DNA of 64,000 nt, taken from assembly GCA_046563655.1 (NCBI GenBank), contig CM102284.1, positions 7,502,001-7,566,000 on the forward strand. The letters run 5' to 3'. The notes below the pieces were generated by a model. It saw only the letters and a program-made list of their open reading frames with translations, was not told where the DNA came from and ran no database searches. The DNA is from Yuukianura sp. NJ FZ-2021. Taxonomy: Eukaryota. Positions 3,536 to 63,525 of the stretch are shown here, in pieces; within the stretch, counting starts at the first letter, position 1, and each line of letters opens with the position of its first letter. A program made the position numbers and the translations under genes.

Positions 3536-6046
3536 ATGTCTTCTCGCGTACTTCGTTCGTGGACAAAGAAGATGGACGAAATTACGTTCGGTACTGGTAC
3601 CAACATTCCTGGTAGAAATATGAACCTTGATGTCCGACTGTTTAGTTGACAAACCAGAACCTAATTAACCATTTAATTCCTGTTTAGGGAAAATTAACAG
3701 CCACGGACAGGCGAACAGAGCAAGAGCAGCGCCCAGAAAATACACGGATGAATTTAAACTTCAGGTTTGTAAACATTGTGAGAATGAAACGTTATTTAGT
3801 CTAACCTATTTAGTCGAGCTTTTTCAGTAGATATTGTATTTATTTAAATACTTCGCTAAAATCAGCAAGAAAGCAGAGCAGTCTTTTATACTAAAAAATT
3901 CTATTATTCCTGAATTGTGAATTGATATTTAGGTCGCGAAGAGGGCACTGGAAATCGGACCCGCTCCAGCAGGCAGAGAATTCAACGTTCCCAGCAGTAC
4001 ACTGTGGAGATGGATGATAAAGCTCAAAACGGATGGAAAGCCAGGAGTGATAAGCACTGAGGAACATCATGAGTCCCCAGCATCGGAAGCAGAAGATGTC
4101 ATCACGGCTGATGCCAGTATCCATGAACAAATCGAACCTACTGCTATTACTACTGAAGAAAATCTCAGACCCGACACACCAGCCTCAGACGTCGAACTTA
4201 CGTTCGGTACCAATATTCCTGGTAGAAATATGAACCTTGATATCCGACTGTTTAGTTGACAAACCAGAACCTAATTAACAATTTAATTCCTGTTTAGGGA
4301 AAATTAACAGCCACGGACAGGCGAACAGACCAAGAGCAGCGCCCAGAAAATACACGGATGAATTTAAAGTTCAGGTTTGACGCTAGTAAACATTGTGAGA
4401 ATGAAACGTTATTTAGTGTAGTTAGTCAAGGTTTTTCAGTAAATATTGTATTTATTTAAATATTTCGCTAACATCAGCAAGAAAGCAGAGCAGTCTTTTA
4501 TACTAAAAAATTCTATTATTCCTGAATTGTGAATTGATATTTAGGTCGCGAAGAGGGCACTGGAAATCGGACCCGCTCCAGCAGGCAGAGAATTCAACGT
4601 TCCCAGCAGTACACTGTGGAGATGGATGATAAAGCTCAAAACGGATGGAAAGCCAGGAGTGATAAGCACTGAGGAACATCATGAGTCCCCAGCATCAGAA
4701 GCAGAAGATGTCATCACGGCTGATGCCAGTATCCATGAACAAATCGAACCTACTGCTATTACTACTGAAGAAAATCTTGGACCCGACACACCAGCCTCAG
4801 ACGTCGAACTTACGTTCGGTGCGAATATTCCTGGAAGAAATATGAACGTTGGATTGGTGGACAAAGCCAGCAATGTTTACTTCATTGAGAAAATTGTGGC
4901 CAACAAATGGTGGTTTCCAGTGGAGGACCAACTGTACTTGTACGTCAAGTGGTGTGGGTGGGCCACGTAAGCAAAAGCTTGTTTATTTAAATGACTATGA
5001 ATTTAATACTCTGATTTACCTCGTTTTTAACATGCTTTTCTAAAATTTTAGAAAATATAATACCTGGGAGCCCCTGAAAAATCTAGTGGTCGACTGTCCT
5101 CTGTTGGTGGCAAAGTTTATGAACGAACTGTCTCCCCGCCTCAACGGAGCCAAGAAAGCGTCAGAATTTTGTAATTCGGCTTTGGAGGACAGCTACAAAG
5201 GAACTTCAAAACGTCCACAACGAACCTGCCAAGGTATTAAAATGCTAATACAACCTAACGTAATTATTATATTTAATTACATTTGAATCAAGCATTCACT
5301 CAAATTCAATTGTTTCAGGAAAAGCTGAAACCTCGGAGGAAGCAGTTCCATTGCCAGTTAAAAGGGGGAGGGGAAGGCCACGGAAATGTCCAGACGTGAC
5401 ACCCCGCGTTGTCGTCACACCACCTTCGACAAATGCTGGAGCAAGAAAACGGGAACCACAGCGGAAGGCTTCGACGCAAAGCCATGGGAGCACAGTTTCA
5501 AATGGCTCCGTGCGGAAACGAGTCCGAACTGGGAAAGATTCGGTTATGGAAGGTTCGTCTTCGGTGCGAAATTACCCGCCTGCTGGATCTACTACTCCAA
5601 TCAGAGAAGTGGCAGAAGACTTACCACCAACTGGACTTCGACGACCGCCGAATACACCGCAAATCGAACACGGAACACAGATCTCCTACGATATTCTGAA
5701 GAACATCAAGAAACTCATAGTCAGCGGAAAGGTAAATGAAAAAAGCGGAAAAAGTAGTAATCGGAATTGGCAGTACACTACTTTGTTTAAATGTTAGGTC
5801 ATGAGATGCTTGCCAGCATCCGCTTTTGAGGCTGAGGATAATCCAGCTCTTGATCCGACTCTGGAGATTGCAGGAGTACTGGACATTCCAGAAGTGAAGC
5901 ACAAGGCCTACTGCGTTCGATACGGAATGGACGAAGAGAAGTTCATTTTCGTGTTCGATGTCATTGCTGAAAAGTACATTCCGGAAATACTGGCCAAGTA
6001 TTTGAAGAATCCTGAGCGTTGGGTAACTGTTGAACGCGAGGAATAG
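3536..6046 (+). CDS. HP1-like protein, about 594 aa: 2x Brinker/pogo-type HTH, chromodomain, AT-hook, divergent chromoshadow-like domain
   Basis: Exons 3536-3611, 3688-3764, 3933-4221, 4298-4374, 4545-4966, 5052-5233, 5319-5731, 5798-6046; all GT-AG and phase-consistent (1785 nt). HTH RKYTDEFK(L/V)QVAKRALEIGPAPAGREFNVPSSTLWRWM twice. Chromodomain VYFIEKIV...[32 protein letters not shown]. AT-hook KRGRGRPRK. C-terminal LEIAGVLD...YCVRY...IAEKYIPEILAKY. Confidence 0.8.
3582..4850 (+). repeat. Intragenic tandem duplication, about 611-bp unit (2 full copies plus about 40 bp of a third)
   Basis: ttacgttcggt...attcctgg(t/a)agaaatatgaac recurs at about 3582, 4198 and 4810. The two full units are near-identical in exons and introns, with scattered substitutions and small indels. 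Confidence 0.95.
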
Positions 6047-9000
6047 GTATGTCTAAAAACGTTTTTTGAACGATTTCTATAGAATTTACTGAATCAGCTT
6101 GAGCCGTTCTTGCTAAAAACTGGTAGTTTGTAAAAGTCGAAGTTTTAATTCTGCTGTAAGGCGCGTCTGTTTAGTTTTAAAATGCATCGTATCTGGAATT
6201 TCTTGACCTAAACAAGTCATCTTTTCTTGTTAGGTTAAGTTTAGAGCGTTAAACAAGAAAAGATGAACCAGAAGCGCGGTTTGAAAGATAATTTGAAAGA
6301 TTGTGTTGACTTGAATTCCTTCTTTTGAAATTCTCTGATTGTTATTGCAGATCTGGCGAGTGGCGACGGACACATTGGGCCCTAAACATCCTCTGATGCT
6401 ATTGTTATACTTCACATCTCTACTTGTACTTCCCTCTGGTCACTTTAGGATTAATGGACATGACTTGACAGAAGAATGACGTTTGTACTTTTCAGCTGCG
6501 GAGTCTGTCATATGATAAGAATACTTGTAAGTACAATTTAAATTTATACGCTCCAACTTTGGCACCAAGCGTCTTGGCTCCAAAAACATTTTGGCAAAAA
6601 TGTTGGAGTCTTTTTGACCTCTATCTCATCTCTGGTCCATTGATCCACTTTGGTTCTACTTTTAAGTAGGCGGAAAGATCACAAGTGCAAAGTAAAGCGA
6701 TTTAAAGCGAAAGCTGACAAATCGCTTTGGCTTGGTTTGCTCTGCAGTGAAATTATGGCACTTCTGTGTTACGCAGATGAATTTTTTAAATGTTATCGCT
6801 GGATCTTTCCGTCTCCTAACCGGTCGTTGAACTTATTTTGCCAAAATAGAAAAACACAATTAATTAGTAGTTGGGATTCCATTCTTAGTATTTTATGTTA
6901 CTGTTGTCAGTTTTTAGTTTGTTGTCACTTTTTAGTGTAATTGTGACGTATTATGGTGACAATGACTTTAGTAGTTTCATACCATAACAAAATTTTGGAG
7001 TTTATTTTTGTAATTTTCAGGCCCATCGTAACTCTTTTAGGTGTTTAGAATGCCAATTGTGACGTGATGTGATGTTTTAGTTTTTAGAAAAAGTGGATCA
7101 AACTGGATGTTTAGAAAAATAGTTCAGACGAGATTGGAGATTGTCCTTCCGTGTTTACTTTTTTAGTTTTAGGACAAGGGGAGGTCAAGGTCAATTTAAT
7201 TTAGATTTTTTCACTTGGATTTGTTCAACTTAGATTTGTTCAACCGTGTCAATATTTCAATTAACTTTATTTTTCTGTTCAACATGACAAGTACATTCCC
7301 AGAATGTTGGACAATAACAATAGTAATACAAAAGAATTTAGAGTTCATAGTTGTTAGTTTTGGTAAATACTGGTTTTCAATGTAAATTTCAAAAGAGTAA
7401 TTGACAACAGTTGAGTGACAGAAACCAGAGACCAGAAAATTTGTGTTTTAAAAGAGATGAGCTTCAATTTAGGAAAAAACCGTTAGGATTTTAGATCATG
7501 ACACGCAGCTAAGCTGTAATTTAGAATTTAGTGGTAATTATTAGGGTGAATAATAGATTAGTGTAAGTTTTATTTTTTGGATTAGCCATGATTCAGTGTC
7601 TATTGTTGTTGTTTTGTTGAGACTAGGATAATAAAGTGATTTAAATTTTCCTGGAACTTTAGTGTTAGAAAAATTTTTAGCGTTCATTGTTTTGAAACCA
7701 TGACCTATGACAAAGTTTACTCTAGTTGTTCCACGAAACTGTAAAATTTAGCAGACCAGACAGGAAGAAAAATAAAACTGGAGAGTAGTATAGCGGTTGA
7801 TTCATTGTCTGGAGTTTAAAAAAAAAGTTTTTCAAAATCCAGAAACATTTTCAGGTTCTTCTAAGAGAAAAAGTTGCTTTTGGATTTTGAATTTCCGACT
7901 CGAGTGAGATAAGATGCTTAGGTTTTTAGAGAAAGTTTTCCGTTTCTGTTTTGAAAATGTTGGATTTGAGCTGCAGAACGTGTTAAAAACAGGATTTGAA
8001 AAACCAGTCACGTGGCGGTGGCAATGGTGACAGGTATTTAGGCTAAATTAGAAACTTGAAAGAAAAGCCGCTGAGATGGTGATGCTGCTGGTTATGATAT
8101 GCTGGGGTGACCAAATCCAAACTTAAGTACCCCCTTAAGTCCCCTGCTTAAAGTGGAAGTGACAAAGTAATTAGGATGATGCCAAAATAAATGATGGGGA
8201 TAAGCTGAAGTGCTTGGGCGGTCCCTGGTCACCGTCTGCTTCTTGTCTGAAACCACACGAAGGGCCCAGGAGCCCTTAGCAGGTTTCTGTGTGCTTTTTA
8301 GACAATACAAAGATGAGCAGACGGTCAACCCCTTCTTCTTTTGAATCAATTGTGTTTGTGTATTGGTCAATTGTCCACTACTGGGCCAGTGGGCCACCAG
8401 CAGGGTTCCATCAAAATCCAAAAGTGGACACACGACAAACACACGCATGAAATCAAGCGAAAGAGGATTTTCGGTGTTTCTGAAAGCTTTAGCACAGGAG
8501 GCATTTGGTTTGCAGATCAGTCCGAAGTTTTAGAATTGCGGAAGAGAAAGTTTAAAGTTTTTCAAGGCTCAGGTTTATGAAAAAGCAAAATGCCGAAGAA
8601 AAATTTCAAAATTCTTGAACTATGAATTTCATAAACTCATAGATAGTGAACTGTTACGGCGTTAAAACTCTGCAAAAAAAATCCTGCATTTTGTGTTTTG
8701 TAGAATTAATATTGAATTCTAACTTTTTTGTATTTGTAGGAATTTTTGAATTCATCTAAATTTTGAATTGATTGGAAAAGCTTCTTTCTTCTTGAAAAAA
8801 TGCTTTTTGTTGTTATAACTTTGGTTTTTAATGGAATATCAAAGCTTTTAGGATTAAGAAGTACTATGCATTCAAAGACATTTTAACGGAAAAATGCAAA
8901 TGTTGTTCAAAACTATAAGCTAAGGGCGGTGCATAGTACGCGTCCTATTGTTGTTCTTGGGCTTGTGATTGGCTGTCCATTGTCATGTTAAGTCCCCTAT

Positions 9001-10890: not shown

Positions 10891-11940
10891 ATGAATCCGG
10901 ATGGACGTCATGGCCGTGGTGACGAAATGTCGCCGTCAAAGCAGCGACACAAGCAAAATGAAGATGAGTTGCTCGGAACAGAATGGGACAAAATCAAGGT
11001 CAACGGGACGAGAGTTGCTTTTTCGTATGGAAAACCCGCTAAAAAGTTAGAGCCGAAGACGACACAAGGATTCGTCACCGCTGCTGGTCCGCGACTGCCA
11101 CCTTTCACCTGTAGTCTCTGCTTGGGCCCCGTGATTGAGGTCATGACCTTGAATTTACTTTTCAAAAACTTCAAAATTCAAACAATTAATTGACATTTTG
11201 AACTTTTCCAGGCAACCATTCCCCTCTGTGGCCACAGCATATTTTGCCGAAAGTGTATTGAAGAGTGCAAGAAGCATTTCAACGCTTGTCCAGTTTGTGG
11301 CGGATCTCTTGGTGACCTTGTTCGAGTGTACGAAGTGGACATGGTCATGGACGAGTACTTTGCGCATGACGCTTCGTCAGACGACATTCTGCGATATGCT
11401 GTTGCCAAGCAGAAGCGATTTGCTGAGCTTCTTGAAGCAACGGAGGCTCAGAAGACAAGTTACCGAAAAGCCCTGGTGAGGAAGCTGGAGCTGATTTGTG
11501 TTCGGTTTCGGACGAAGGGCGTTGGTGCTGGACTTGGAGCCGTCGTGAGCCAAATGTGTTGCCGTGCTAGAAGCATTTCCAGTACCAAGATTCAAGGCCA
11601 CTTTTGCACTGGAATTGTGATGGGCATTGTCATCGGCTTGATTATCGTTCTGTTTGGAGGCAGTACCAGTCCCGGCACAAGATTAGTCAACTTCTGCTGG
11701 AGTCACATTGTAGATGGATTCTGTAAATTCAGTAACCCCTGTGCTCAAACGGCAGGTAACAGTTGTTAATCCACGTAACCTGAGTTAATTGACATGAATT
11801 CTAGTAGGTCAAAGGTCATGCCATGAATCTTCATTCCAATAGGTGCACCACCTCCTCCTCTTCCTCCAGCATCCTTTGATCTCTGGGGTTGGCTTCGCTG
11901 TTTGATACCGATTCCAGGTTGGATTAAGTCCTGGTTCTAA
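10891..11940 (+). CDS. RING-HC (C3HC4) E3 ligase with hydrophobic TM segment, paralog A, about 296 aa
   Basis: Exons 10891-11139, 11212-11755, 11843-11940. RING CSLC..E|ATIPLCGHSIFCRKC..CPVC. TM GIVMGIVIGLIIVLF. Confidence 0.8.
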
Positions 11941-12479: not shown

Positions 12480-13618
12480 ATGCAGGATATGCCGAGATTT
12501 CGCATATTCCGCCGTAGCGGACGACAAGTTCTGTCTCGGCAAGATGCTCAATCTCCTCCAATCATTCCTCTTGACGACGAAGACTCTGAAGAAGCTTGGC
12601 TGCGAAGGTTTATAGATGATGCAGCGTCTCCGTACCTTGTAGCCGCTGCAAGCGTTAGAGCTTCTGCGGGATCAACCTCATCTACGGGTTCAGACGTTTT
12701 GGTCAACTCCGATACGGATAGTAACGACGGTGATTCAATGACTACAGCTACTGGCACACGTCATCCCGCGGTGTCATATGCTAACGCGCCATTTGAGTGC
12801 CCAATTTGTTTCGATGCAGTTCATCAGGTGACTGACTACATTTAAGAGTTGTTAATCGGTTTGTATTACGAGTTACTATTCCTATGTTTTGTTTTAGGCA
12901 ACCGTCCCGATTTGTGGACACGTCTTCTGCCAGCAGTGTATCAAAACTTGCGTTCGACGCGGGAGCTCCGTTTGTCCAATCTGTCGCGGATCACTGCTAA
13001 TGCTTACTCGTGTCTATGACATTGATAAAGTAATGGATGCTTACTTCGTCTCAGTACAAAATGGCGGAGGGCCCATTTTCGTTACCCCGCGGCCAATCGC
13101 TTTTGGGGATCAGGATCAGGAACGGATTTCCGTTCAAGCTCGCAACTATAGCCTGAAGCAGCGCGTTCGAATCGAATTGGCTAACATTCGCTTGACGTTT
13201 CAATTGAAGGGTTGGATCGACGGGATTCAATTAATCTTCAAACGAATCTTCTTCATCATACGCTTGAATTTTCCAAAGACGCTTGTGATTGGGATTGTTT
13301 GTGGAGCAACGATTGGAATCGTTTTGTGCCATGTCGCTCAACCGCCACAAATCTGTCCGCCTCACGAATGTCACCTGAAAATGACAGCATGGGAACACCT
13401 TGTTGCAGCTATTCGATCTCGTAATTACTAGACTATATGACATCGTTATGATTTCTTAAAAAAGTGTTTTTCTTGTTTCAGTTCTTGGCCTCGTGCCTGT
13501 TCCGGAACCAGCTTTTGAGATTCGCTATCCACAAGTTGTTCAGCCGCAAGTCTTCGATGATGTGTTGGAGTACATTCAAGCAAAGTTGAATGCATTTGGC
13601 AAATTGCTCAATTACTAA
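12480..13618 (+). CDS. RING-HC (C3HC4) E3 ligase with SIM-like motifs and TM segment, paralog B, about 335 aa
   Basis: Exons 12480-12827, 12898-13420, 13482-13618 (or stop at 13431 if the last intron is retained). RING CPIC..Q|ATVPICGHVFCQQC..CPIC. TM LVIGIVCGATIGIVLC. Same intron position in the RING as paralog A. Confidence 0.8.
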
Positions 13619-60200: not shown

Positions 60201-60528
60201 TTGTAAAACTCCCTCAGGTAGAATTTTGAAAAACTCGTAAAATTTTGGCAAACTCTCCTGAAGCCTGAATCCTCAATTTCCAAAATTACATTTTTACTTT
60301 GTGTTTCCACCCGAATTGTTTCTCTAAGAAAACTTTAAAATTTATTTATATCCAAAGCCATAAAGTTAATACTCCCGAGGGATTGTTTTGTCTAGAAACC
60401 CTCACTTTTTCAAAACTTCAAACAGAACAGACTCTACATCAACTTGCAAGTATTTCCAGTACTTGAAAAAACAAAGTACTTGGAATTTAAGTTCCCTTAA
60501 GAAAAGTCCTCCCGTTGTTATTCAATTA

Positions 60529-61595
60529 CCGTATTTTCCCAAATAGTACACCTGGTGTACTAATTTTGTTTTCGACTTCTGGGGGTGGTGTACTATTAGG
60601 GACCTGGTGTATTATTAGAGACGGTGTACTAATTAATTTTTTAAGAATGAGGATTTTATTCTTAACTAAAACGTTTAGGAATCAGGAGAAAATAATTTCT
60701 AAATTACTAAAAACTACTCCACTTCGTTTTCGGAAGCTTTCAGAGTTTTTGATTAGTTCAGTTGACAATGAATCCCAGACAATCTTCACCCATTTAGTCA
60801 TCAATTTCTTGGATGGAGCATTAAAAATTAAGAATTTATATAAATTATATTTAAAAGAAACCTACGACCGTACAAATTATTAGTTATGAAATACCTTCAA
60901 ATTCCCTCCTTTTGTATACTCCTTGTCGGAATCTCCTGCTAGCCAAGAATCGTAAAGTTCGGTAATACAAGCCTTGAAGGGTTTATTCCAGCACAAATCT
61001 GGAGCTTGAATATACTTTGTACATCCCCCGGGAATCACTGTCATTGTGGTGTTGTAGCCAATGAGTTCATTTTTAGTAGATTTACTGAAGTGACATTTGT
61101 AAGAATCCCAAGCTAACAAACGATGTTTGAAGGAAAATCGTGTGAACACAGTTTTCAACAAGTCACAGGTCAGATTATCGTTCATCCAACCATTTGAACT
61201 GCTACGAATTACGATCCCAGTTTCGGTTTGAAGCTTCGCTACCTCTCGAATTCCCTGTTTGAAAACGATGAATGGTTTCAGATTTGTTCCGTCACCTTTG
61301 GCCGCTAGAACAAGCGTAGCGTGTGCCTTGTCATTTCCAGTCGACTTTAGTTGAACAGTTTTAGAGAAGTAACGTGGAGATAAACACAACAAATGAAGAG
61401 CTATAATATTAGCTCAACTAACTTCTCCGGGTGTTATACTCCAAATGCTACATTACCAAAGACCTGGTGTACTATTAGAGACCTGGTGTACTATTTGGGA
61501 CGGTGTACTAATTAATTTTTCGACTTCTGGGGGTGGTGTACTATTAGGGACCTGGTGTACTATTTAGGTATGGTGTACTATTAGGGAAAATACGG
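60529..61595 (-). mobile_element. Internally deleted pogo/Tc2-like (DDE_1) DNA transposon
   Basis: TIRs CCGTATTTTCCC(A/T)AATAGTACACC at both ends; TA at 60527-60528 and 61596-61597; repeated subterminal GGTGTACTA. Transposase fragment 60880-61392 (STGNDK, LKPFIVFK, SSNGWMN, LLAWDSYKCH, IPGGCTKYIQAPDLCWNKPFK) lacks the N-terminal HTH region. Confidence 0.92.
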
Positions 61596-62649
61596 TATTC
61601 AAATCAGGTACTACTTGGTACATCCCCAGGAGAAAGTTAAACTTCCTTTCAAACTTCCCAGGCGACTTTCACTTCCCCAGAAACTAATTATTCAATTTCA
61701 TAATTTAATTCTCTCTTCCAAGAAACCTAATTTTTCAAGAAAAACGGAAAGAAAAGCTCATGAATTTCAAAAAACTTGTTTTCAAACTTTCAAACTTTTC
61801 CAAAAATCTGAAACTTTATAATTCCTAATCCTAATTTCCATTCCAACTTTGGAGAAGAAAGTCAAAGAACAAAACAAACTTCATAATCCTCAAACGGACG
61901 CTTCGGAGAAAGAAAAAACTAATTTTACAAATTGACCTAAAATTGTTATTTCAAGATCAAAACCAGGACATTATAATGTAATTTATGAGATCAAAACCTT
62001 TAAGCACACAAGAAAACAATCCACCCTCCACATGACGTCATTACTCGATTCTTTTACAAACAACTTTCACTCTTTGTCTTTCCCTACCGTAAACAAAGAA
62101 AATGATCTTGCATGCTCCACTTCTATCAGAATCAGCCACTTTGCGTGTCTCACTCCGTCACTTCCTGCGAAAAATATTCAATGATGTCACAGAATCACAC
62201 GTTTTCTTGTGTTTTTCTGTGGGCACGTGACCTTTACTCCCCCGATCTCACTTTGCTCACTACCACACGGAAATCCTACCTCATGACTTTCTCCATCTCA
62301 TTTCCCCAGTGACTCAAGAACAAACAAACAGCGTCACCCCATTACAATTTGAATGTGACGCAGAAAACAGAAAGTGTGCGACTCATCAATTTACTTTCAC
62401 AAGACTTTCTCCTTTTCCCCGAATTTCATAAGCCAAAAACAAGTTCCACTTTTGCTCGGGACGAAATTGGAGCAAATGGGCGTGGTTTGGCTGAAATTGA
62501 TGATTCTCCATAGTAAACGAAGGACACTCAAAACGTCGTCCTTGACCACTTACTTACTTTTACTTTGGCCCAAATAATAACAATGACTCAACTCAATTTT
62601 AGTAGTTCCAAAACAATCATTTATCAAAAACTCCACCCTTTCCGCTTCT

Positions 62650-63525
62650 AATAAACCGGTTGTAAACCGCGCATAACGAAATAGCTCAAGACAAAAGACA
62701 GTTTTCCCCCGTGTGGGGAATGTGGGGAGGGGGTGGGGTTGGTCACCCACGCTTTTCTCCGTATTCCTCAGCTTCTCCCCCCATGGGGGAGTTGGTGATG
62801 TGTGTTCCCTCCGCCTTTTTGCTCCGCACCCCAGGGAGCGTTGGGGTGGGTCCCCCTCTTTTCCGCCCCCCCCCCCGGAGGAGTGGGGGTGGGTTCCCCC
62901 CACTTTTCCGCCCCCCCCCCCGGGGGAGTGTGGGTGGGGTTCCCCCACTTTTCGGCCCCCCGGGGAGAGTGGGGGGGGGGCTCTCCCCACTTTTCCGCCC
63001 CCCCCCCAGGGGAGTGGGGGTGGGTTCCCCCCACTTTTCCGCCCCCCCCCCCAGGGGAGTGGGGGTGGGTTCCTCCCACTTTTCGGCCCTCCCGGGGAGA
63101 GTGGGGGGGCTCCCCCCACTTTTCCGCCCCCTCCCACCCGGGGGAGTAGAGTGGGTTCCCCCACTTCCCCACCTGGGATGCCTGCCTTATGAGAGAATGG
63201 GCAAGGTAGCAGGGTTGCCTTGCCCATCTATACTGTATGTTAATATGTTGACCTTTGATCCCGGTTTTGACCCCCTTGGAGGGGTCAGAGACCCATGGTT
63301 CATATACCAAAGTTGTTCCCCTCAATGAGAGGAACAACTTTTGTTAGGGTCATTTTCCCGGTTTTATATTCAAAAGGTCAATGACCTTGACCTTTGACCC
63401 GGTAAAAGGTCACCTATCCGGATGATATGATAAAATTGAACTGGTATACACCATGACATATCAATCGATGAAAACCCGGATGAAATTGGTCCAGTAGTTT
63501 CTGAGTTATTGAGGCTCATAGACAG

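Follow-up and report, generated by a model that had tools for sequence, protein, structure and literature searches.

How readers of the HP1 type reach particular stretches of DNA remains an unsolved question. The known answers include small RNAs and KRAB zinc fingers, and HP1 that is artificially tethered to DNA suffices to seed heterochromatin. Another known answer is a separate sequence-specific partner, which for Rhino is Kipferl (PMC11245307). Could a reader of this type carry its own DNA-binding domain instead? The question is raised by a gene predicted at positions 3536 to 6046 of a 64,000-nucleotide (nt) stretch of DNA from Yuukianura sp. NJ FZ-2021 (assembly GCA_046563655.1, contig CM102284.1, positions 7,502,001 to 7,566,000 of the forward strand). 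This whole stretch is called the window below and all coordinates refer to it. A preliminary description of the window had read the gene as an HP1-like protein fused to two Brinker-type or pogo-type helix-turn-helix (HTH) domains. On balance, we lean to the view that the product of this gene is a chromodomain reader equipped with a DNA-binding head of its own. It would represent a lineage-specific host-transposase fusion, in which a transposase DNA-binding domain (DBD) was placed onto a reader of the HP1/CBX type, as far as a gene model can tell.

Gene Model

The model comprises eight exons and seven introns on the plus strand and runs from an ATG at 3536 to a TAG at 6044-6046. The introns are 66-170 nt long, all begin with GT and end with AG, and their removal leaves 1785 nt with one continuous reading frame of 594 amino acids plus the stop. 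Exon 1 (3536-3611) holds the start codon and ends in phase 1; its last 35 nt or so are the first copy of a short repeated sequence, here called the junction segment. Exon 2 (3688-3764) encodes the basic arm and the first helix of HTH copy 1. The remainder of that copy (to about 4043) is found in exon 3 (3933-4221), where it is followed by an acidic linker; junction segment copy 2 closes the exon, again in phase 1. Exon 4 (4298-4374) is a duplicate of exon 2 and encodes the first helix of HTH copy 2. Exon 5 (4545-4966) is a single open reading frame (ORF) of 141 codons that starts exactly at an AG acceptor and contains half an HTH and half a chromodomain. The remainder of HTH copy 2 comes first (to about 4655) and is followed by an acidic linker. 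Then come the third copy of the junction segment, which is here read as codons, and, starting at 4872, the first chromodomain half. Exon 6 (5052-5233) completes the chromodomain with its second half (to about 5130), exon 7 (5319-5731) encodes a basic, low-complexity hinge, and exon 8 (5798-6046) holds the C-terminal domain (core 5852-6043) and the stop codon.

The four splice junctions named in the preliminary description (3611/3688, 3764/3933, 4221/4298 and 4374/4545) hold up, as all are of the GT..AG type and the frame stays open across them. Three further junctions, at 4966/5052, 5233/5319 and 5731/5798, are also of the GT..AG type. The HTH pair, the chromodomain and the AT-hook (KRGRGRPRK, 5360-5386, plus strand) share one continuous frame, as had been claimed. 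Codon usage favors this frame: with stops scored, it is the best of six in all eight exons, and with stops left out it is the best in six of the eight, while the two 25-codon exons rank second.

The TAG stop is directly followed by a donor-like GTATGT, and an acceptor-like TTGCAG lies near 6351 (6044-6360). This pair may mark an intron in the 3' untranslated region or an alternative last exon.

An Intron-Split Helix-Turn-Helix

Each HTH is split by an intron within its first helix, and the Pfam scans saw its halves separately rather than as a joined peptide. Exon 2 matches HTH_Tnp_1 at positions 3-19 of 75 (E=0.21, 12.3 bits against a cut-off of 24.1); this match was obtained by reading through intron 2 (168 nt, in frame) with stops written as X. 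Exons 3 and 5 match HTH_psq at positions 22-35 of 45 (E=0.025-0.029, 14.5-14.7 bits against a cut-off of 20.4) and CENP-B_N at positions 29-43 of 53 (E=0.24-0.30, 11.2-12.2 bits against a cut-off of 21.2). The matched positions in the two halves are complementary, so the two exons match the first and the second halves of related HTH profiles.

The joined peptide was scored with hidden Markov models (HMMs) that we built from bacterial HTH_Tnp_1 segments (n=29, 38, and 59), using exon pairs joined by a script. With the 59-segment HMM, joined copy 1 reaches 19.7 bits, joined copy 2 reaches 20.7 bits, and the whole model reaches 33.1 bits. The 29-segment and 38-segment HMMs had given 10.3 and 14.6 bits for copy 1 and 12.0 and 15.9 bits for copy 2. 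The alignment spans HMM positions 3-51 and is uninterrupted at the splice junction. On their own, the halves score 8.9 bits (exon 3) and 5.2 bits (exon 2) with the same 59-segment HMM. Its maximum is 7.2 bits over 2000 shuffles and 10.6 bits over 2135 six-frame stop-to-stop pieces of the window. Among these 2135, ranks 2 to 5 are taken by pieces from exons of the gene itself, and the ORF piece 3669-3827 is 2nd. A comparator HMM built from 29 HTH_28 segments scores the HTH_Tnp_1 training set at a median of 22.6 bits and gives the joined peptides 0.7-0.8 bits, with shuffles up to 7.0. Since the comparator finds no signal on the joined peptides, the match is specific and does not reflect a general "HTH-ness". 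Other comparators yielded few members: PF01710 was found at E<=1e-8 in 0 of 151 genomes, HTH_psq in 3 of 201 Bacillota genomes, which was insufficient for an HMM, and the set from the phylum of G152 gave 1 of 121. The intron-split HTH that had been assembled by manual splicing is thus confirmed in the sequence, in that the two exon halves align as one HTH with scores far above the controls.

The family of this HTH is best discussed against what is known of pogo transposases. Their first HTH is of the CENP-B_N, HTH_ABP1_N, BrkDBD or HTH_psq type and their second is HTH_Tnp_Tc5, and POGK, which derives from the Passer family, has a BrkDBD beside a KRAB domain (PMC7386202). The CENPB and Brinker domains in human factors are described as transposase-derived (PMC13538051). 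Fusion of transposase-derived first HTHs to host domains is presented as an established route to new genes (PMC7386202, PMC13538051). The background that the preliminary description gave on pogo first HTHs and on KRAB-containing POGK is therefore in print (PMC7386202, PMC13538051).

The sequence matches support a first HTH of the transposase type. The "Brinker" label is not supported, as BrkDBD (PF09607) is not among the Pfam families at E<=10 when the halves and the read-through are scanned separately. As to the "pogo-type" label, the recognition-helix half has the sub-threshold HTH_psq and CENP-B_N matches described above. The expected second domain, HTH_Tnp_Tc5, has no match at E<=10 in the whole of exon 3 (108 amino acids) or exon 5 (140 amino acids). 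In both exons the HTH is directly followed by the acidic low-complexity linker, and the gene model has no Pfam match to a DDE domain. One profile alone, that of the bacterial IS3-family OrfA HTH (HTH_Tnp_1, PF01527), aligns with the joined segment over its full length. The two share a basic-aromatic start of helix 1 and a recognition helix with a conserved W. In our gene, which is eukaryotic and intron-bearing, helices 1 and 2 are joined by a loop that is two residues shorter, and the score of about 20 bits comes from our own HMM and not from that of Pfam.

Tandem Duplication of the Helix-Turn-Helix Module

The HTH is present twice, as the preliminary description had it, and the source of the second copy is an in-frame tandem duplication of a two-exon module with its introns. 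Positions 3596-4230 and 4206-4842 are 95.3% identical in an alignment of 642 columns that has 18 mismatches and 2 gap openings, and the distance between the copies is 610-612 nt. Duplication unit 1 (3596-4205, plus strand) includes the end of exon 1, intron 1, the 77-nt exon 2, intron 2, and most of the 289-nt exon 3. Unit 2 spans 4206-4817 on the plus strand. The unit is in phase 1 at both ends and adds exactly 122 codons, and the duplication is therefore in frame. For the same reason of phase, the two-exon HTH module can be duplicated or skipped without a break of the frame. By sequence comparison, this module is recently duplicated.

In the coding part, units 1 and 2 differ at 7 of 363 nt and at 4 of 121 residues, with 0 indels. 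The coding divergence is 1.9%, with a nonsynonymous rate (dN) of 0.0144, a synonymous rate (dS) of 0.0374 and a dN/dS of 0.38. The introns differ at 9 of 239 aligned nt (3.8%) and have 12 gap columns in addition. The coding parts have diverged less than the introns, which is the trend that two copies both maintained as coding sequence should show.

The junction segment (about 34-50 nt, repeat family D4) occurs three times, at 3596-3629, 4206-4239 and 4818-4851, and its copies score 100%, 97%, and 85%. Copies 1 and 2 end their exon at a GT donor. Copy 3 (4818-4851, plus strand) is partial, its donor reads GA, and it is read through as codons that include the ATG at 4842. It reads as codons for 15 nt past the donor site, and the homologous 15 nt are intronic in copies 1 and 2. 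The junction segment is thus a small natural case of interconversion between exon and intron. The module may have entered an ancestor that had no HTH, or unequal crossing-over between junction copies may have produced the array.

Chromodomain and AT-Hook

Exon 6 matches Pfam Chromo at positions 29-52 of 53 (E=0.0061, 16.9 bits against a cut-off of 25.1). Against the sequences of the PDB at E<=1, 13 of its 14 matches are chromodomains: three each of CBX5, CBX1 and CBX3, and two each of Rhino and CBX4. The remaining match is a designed coiled coil. The best match is CBX5 with E=0.0024. The second half of the chromodomain is, by these matches, of the HP1 type. The first half, encoded by exon 5, carries the Y of VYFIE and both W of KWCGW, which are visible by eye. 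These three aromatics probably stand at the positions of the methyl-lysine cage, and KW and NTWEP presumably lie at the canonical distance from each other across the 4966/5052 junction.

The AT-hook was read from the sequence and lies within the basic hinge, about 75 residues past the chromodomain. It has the R-G-R-P core between basic residues. This definition of the core agrees with the description in PMC2784810. Pfam AT_hook gives E=8, which is uninformative for a motif so short.

C-Terminal Domain

The tail of the protein had been called chromoshadow-like, and this was not confirmed. Exon 8 matches no Pfam family at E<=10, and hence neither a chromoshadow domain nor a Pc box. Against PDB sequences it gives unrelated weak matches only, and a Smith-Waterman alignment of the C-terminal domain with the gene's own chromodomain scores 23 where the mean of shuffles is 23.1. 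With HMMER, exon 8 found a single match among 1.84 billion representatives, P0001 (E=5e-5, 6 stretches), which is a bacterial SpaA_2/DUF11 repeat surface protein and was rejected as spurious.

AlphaFold models of exon 8 were built without an alignment. For the whole exon (82 residues) the predicted local distance difference test score (pLDDT) is 60.8, the best Foldseek E is 0.77 with no chromodomain rows, and VIA-align gives Z<=3.7. The model of the core (64 residues) has a mean pLDDT of 65.3 and shows three strands and then a helix. This order of strands and helix, in a model of low confidence, is compatible with a chromo-like fold. With the core model, Foldseek found nothing at E<=0.001. Among the 47 matches it listed, 18 are chromodomain or chromoshadow structures, all with E of 0.38-0.77 and a root-mean-square deviation of 7-13 Å; 3 of these are named as chromoshadow domains, 2 are HP1-peptide complexes and 13 are chromodomains. 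This enrichment is a hint from a predicted model. VIA-align, in a wide search and a second look, has no chromodomain or chromoshadow domain among the 50 matches listed (best Z 4.2). The fold matches are thus not significant and there is no sequence support, which weakens the label "HP1-like", as this label needs a chromoshadow domain.

A Proposed Chromodomain Reader with Its Own DNA-Binding Head

If the gene is transcribed and spliced as modelled, its protein would contain, from the N to the C terminus, two HTHs of about 45 residues, acidic linkers, the chromodomain, the basic hinge with the AT-hook, and the small C-terminal domain. The HTH pair, together with the AT-hook, would anchor the protein to particular DNA. 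The most plausible targets would be repeats related to the transposon family that donated the HTH. The chromodomain would read methylated tails of histone H3, probably those methylated at lysine 9 (H3K9me), since its second half is of the HP1 class. The C-terminal domain may mediate self-association or the binding of effectors.

A bolder form of this reading is doubtful in our judgment. It holds that an HP1-class protein with a captured transposase first HTH binds defined DNA repeats by itself, and so unites an address with a reader. Such a protein could nucleate or stabilize H3K9me chromatin without an adaptor of the kind of Kipferl or KRAB-ZNF/KAP1. In-frame changes in the number of modules would then retune spacing or avidity as the target transposons evolve. 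The seeding of heterochromatin on transposon ends, which the preliminary description had put forward, is a role that we infer at most.

Several points weigh against a chromodomain reader with a DNA-binding head. The gene model was predicted from genomic sequence alone, and every Pfam match in it falls under the gathering score. The preliminary description had named a chromodomain with cage aromatics; its C-terminal half stands as HP1-type, and its N-terminal half in exon 5, which carries these aromatics, gave no Pfam or PDB phmmer match when searched alone. Pfam scans of shorter cuts of exons 5 and 8 gave nothing relevant. With 7 coding and 9 intronic differences between the duplicated units, the signal of selection falls short of significance. 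No relatives of the C-terminal domain were detected. Searches of protein libraries and metagenome contigs turned up no relative of any exon. Word-indexed searches, which covered only the longer proteins and used exon 5, exon 8 and the HTH half of exon 3, gave no match; the metagenome contigs gave 130 pattern matches for exon 5 and 366 for exon 8, of which 0 were confirmed; and exon 3 gave unrelated weak matches only in a PDB sequence search. Conservation of the fusion therefore cannot be demonstrated.

The splice junction inside HTH copy 1 is a further point of this kind. In copy 1, 25 of 123 GT-AG pairs leave the join open, and the modelled 3764/3933 join ranks third with 19.7 bits, against 21.1 and 20.0 for the two above it. 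These competing joins use an acceptor that has no AT-rich or pyrimidine-rich tract, and their equivalents in copy 2 are not open. In copy 2, where 4 of 189 GT-AG pairs are open, the modelled 4374/4545 join is the best, with 20.7 against 13.0 bits. The exact junction is not fixed by our HTH HMM alone; the modelled one is the junction common to both HTH copies.

Finally, there is an in-frame ATG at 4842, 30 nt upstream of the chromodomain, and its use as the start could give a short protein that has no HTH. An explanation built on this ATG is rather unlikely in our view and still the strongest alternative. It holds that the gene encodes an ordinary small chromodomain protein from this ATG or one nearby, and that the HTH exons are upstream debris outside the mature mRNA. 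It would account for the junction segment, which is intronic in copies 1 and 2 yet exonic at copy 3, as if the 5' part were perhaps a later addition, and for the lack of an orthologue of the long form in the protein libraries and metagenome contigs searched. It does not sit well with the roughly 100 open codons that precede the ATG and start exactly at an AG acceptor. The first 102 codons of exon 5 (4545-4850) remain open in only 105 of 20000 shuffles. These codons encode the latter half of an HTH that begins in an upstream exon of the correct phase. Both duplicates retain the frame, the splice sites and a coding divergence below that of the introns. The codon usage of the linker is as coding-like as that of the conserved genes of the window (0.19-0.22 against 0.15 per codon).

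The duplication itself invites another explanation, namely that the gene has a single HTH and that the duplicate is an assembly artefact, in which two diverged haplotypes were placed end to end. A difference of about 5% between the copies with small indels would fit allelic divergence in a very heterozygous invertebrate. The duplicate, however, adds its 122 codons exactly and keeps both phase-1 boundaries. The third, partial junction copy, at 85% and with a diverged donor, fits unequal crossing-over between real repeats. We regard an artefact as quite improbable.

It is similarly improbable that the gene encodes a Polycomb reader like CBX2, which would bind trimethylated lysine 27 of histone H3 (H3K27me3) and a RING1-type partner and would not be an HP1 protein. 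In CBX2 an AT-hook adjoins the chromodomain, and the C terminus of Pc proteins is a short beta-strand box (PMC2784810). Pfam and PDB sequence searches with the tail of our protein found no chromoshadow signal, and CBX4 is among the PDB matches of exon 6. Yet the HP1-class chromodomains of CBX5 (21.6 bits), CBX1, CBX3 and Rhino all rank above that of CBX4 (14.5 bits), and the AT-hook is distant from the chromodomain rather than adjacent to it. No Pc-box family is among the Pfam matches, and the tail of 64-82 residues with predicted strands and a helix is longer than a Pc box, which has 29-31 residues.

That the gene is part of a mobile element, as an accessory or targeting protein comparable to the chromodomains in chromoviral and Maverick integrases, can be nearly dismissed: both HTHs and chromodomains occur in proteins of mobile elements (PMC10799480, PMC7386202), but no terminal inverted or long direct repeats bracket the gene, no transposase or integrase ORF adjoins it, a tblastn search with the spliced model found no second copy in the window, and the gene has seven spliceosomal-type introns in a setting of ordinary single-copy animal genes.

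The Surrounding Window

The window is animal DNA, with Pfam matches to Aconitase, DAGK_cat, Peptidase_M3, Folate_carrier, Bcl-2, SAM, WD40, C2H2 and RING. Rfam and tRNA scans of it gave no match. The upstream neighbor of the gene is an ORF at 1382-2032 on the minus strand. A unit of about 83 nt (families D3, D5 and D8) is repeated three times at 1183-1444 and overlaps the 3' end of this ORF. Two RING-finger exons on the same strand, at 11194-11769 and 12898-13431, are paralogues (31% identity over 149 residues, E=7e-18). With a hydrophobic stretch after each, they look like a tandem gene pair. Between 41000 and 60000 there is no long conserved-looking ORF, and the ORFs of more than 110 codons are of low complexity and rich in K, F and S. 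The region is probably one long stretch of AT-rich intergenic or intronic sequence.

A pogo-like element of 1.1 kb lies at 60520-61604. It is internally deleted and has terminal inverted repeats of 33 nt that are 88% complementary. Its subterminal arrays of 19-nt repeats contain GGTGTACTA in 10 exact copies, where 0.05 are expected. The only transposase ORF in the window is a fragment within this element (60880-61413, minus strand, 177 codons), which matches DDE_1 with E=9e-10 and lacks the N-terminal DNA-binding part. As this N-terminal DBD is lost, no comparison with the HTH of our gene is possible. A link between the HTH and the GGTGTACTA repeats has no support; all 10 copies fall in 60544-61580, 54 kb away, and none is near the gene. 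Beyond the element, at 62843-63166, a G/C-rich tandem array (45-nt unit, 7.4 copies, 77% matches) stands in AT-rich surroundings and yields long spurious ORFs on both strands.

Relation to Known Systems

The predicted protein can be compared with several groups of known proteins. With the HP1 family (CBX1/3/5, Drosophila HP1a, Rhino) it shares a chromodomain of the N-terminal type, whose second half is matched best by CBX5, CBX1, CBX3 and Rhino, aromatics at the three positions that the preliminary description assigned to the cage, and a basic hinge followed by a small C-terminal domain. It differs from them in an N-terminal extension of about 280 residues with two HTHs and in a tail that has no detectable chromoshadow sequence signal. 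HP1 proteins take their DNA specificity from partners, as Rhino does from the zinc-finger protein Kipferl (PMC11245307). Known host-transposase fusions likewise place a transposase-type first HTH on a host chromatin or repression module (PMC7386202; 10.1101/2020.05.07.082677). Here, in contrast, a chromodomain reader takes the place of KRAB as the host part, and the transposase part is a first HTH only, intron-split and present in two copies. CBX2 and Polycomb share the order of chromodomain and then AT-hook (PMC2784810), whereas in our gene the chromodomain is nearer to the HP1 class, the AT-hook is distant and no Pc box turned up in the Pfam scans. Pogo-derived CENP-B-like proteins and POGZ bring a transposase DBD and an HP1-type reader together on one chromatin (PMC7386202; 10.1101/2021.06.28.447216). 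There, these are separate proteins that interact, and here they would be one polypeptide.

Both host-transposase-DBD fusions and HP1 paralogues are well known, and their combination was not found in the literature searched. Full-text searches, which covered the main texts of papers, found no description of an HP1 or chromodomain protein that carries an HTH of its own. The main text of the preprint by Cosby et al. (10.1101/2020.05.07.082677) does not contain "HP1", "heterochromatin" or "pogo", and its lists of fusion genes, which are in the supplements, may include an example.

A chromodomain reader with its own DNA-binding head would bear directly on how HP1-type readers reach particular DNA. 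If the reading is true, a natural fusion of a transposase-type DBD with an HP1-type chromodomain would be the genetic equivalent of tethering HP1 to DNA. The list of host domains that have captured transposase DBDs would then also grow.

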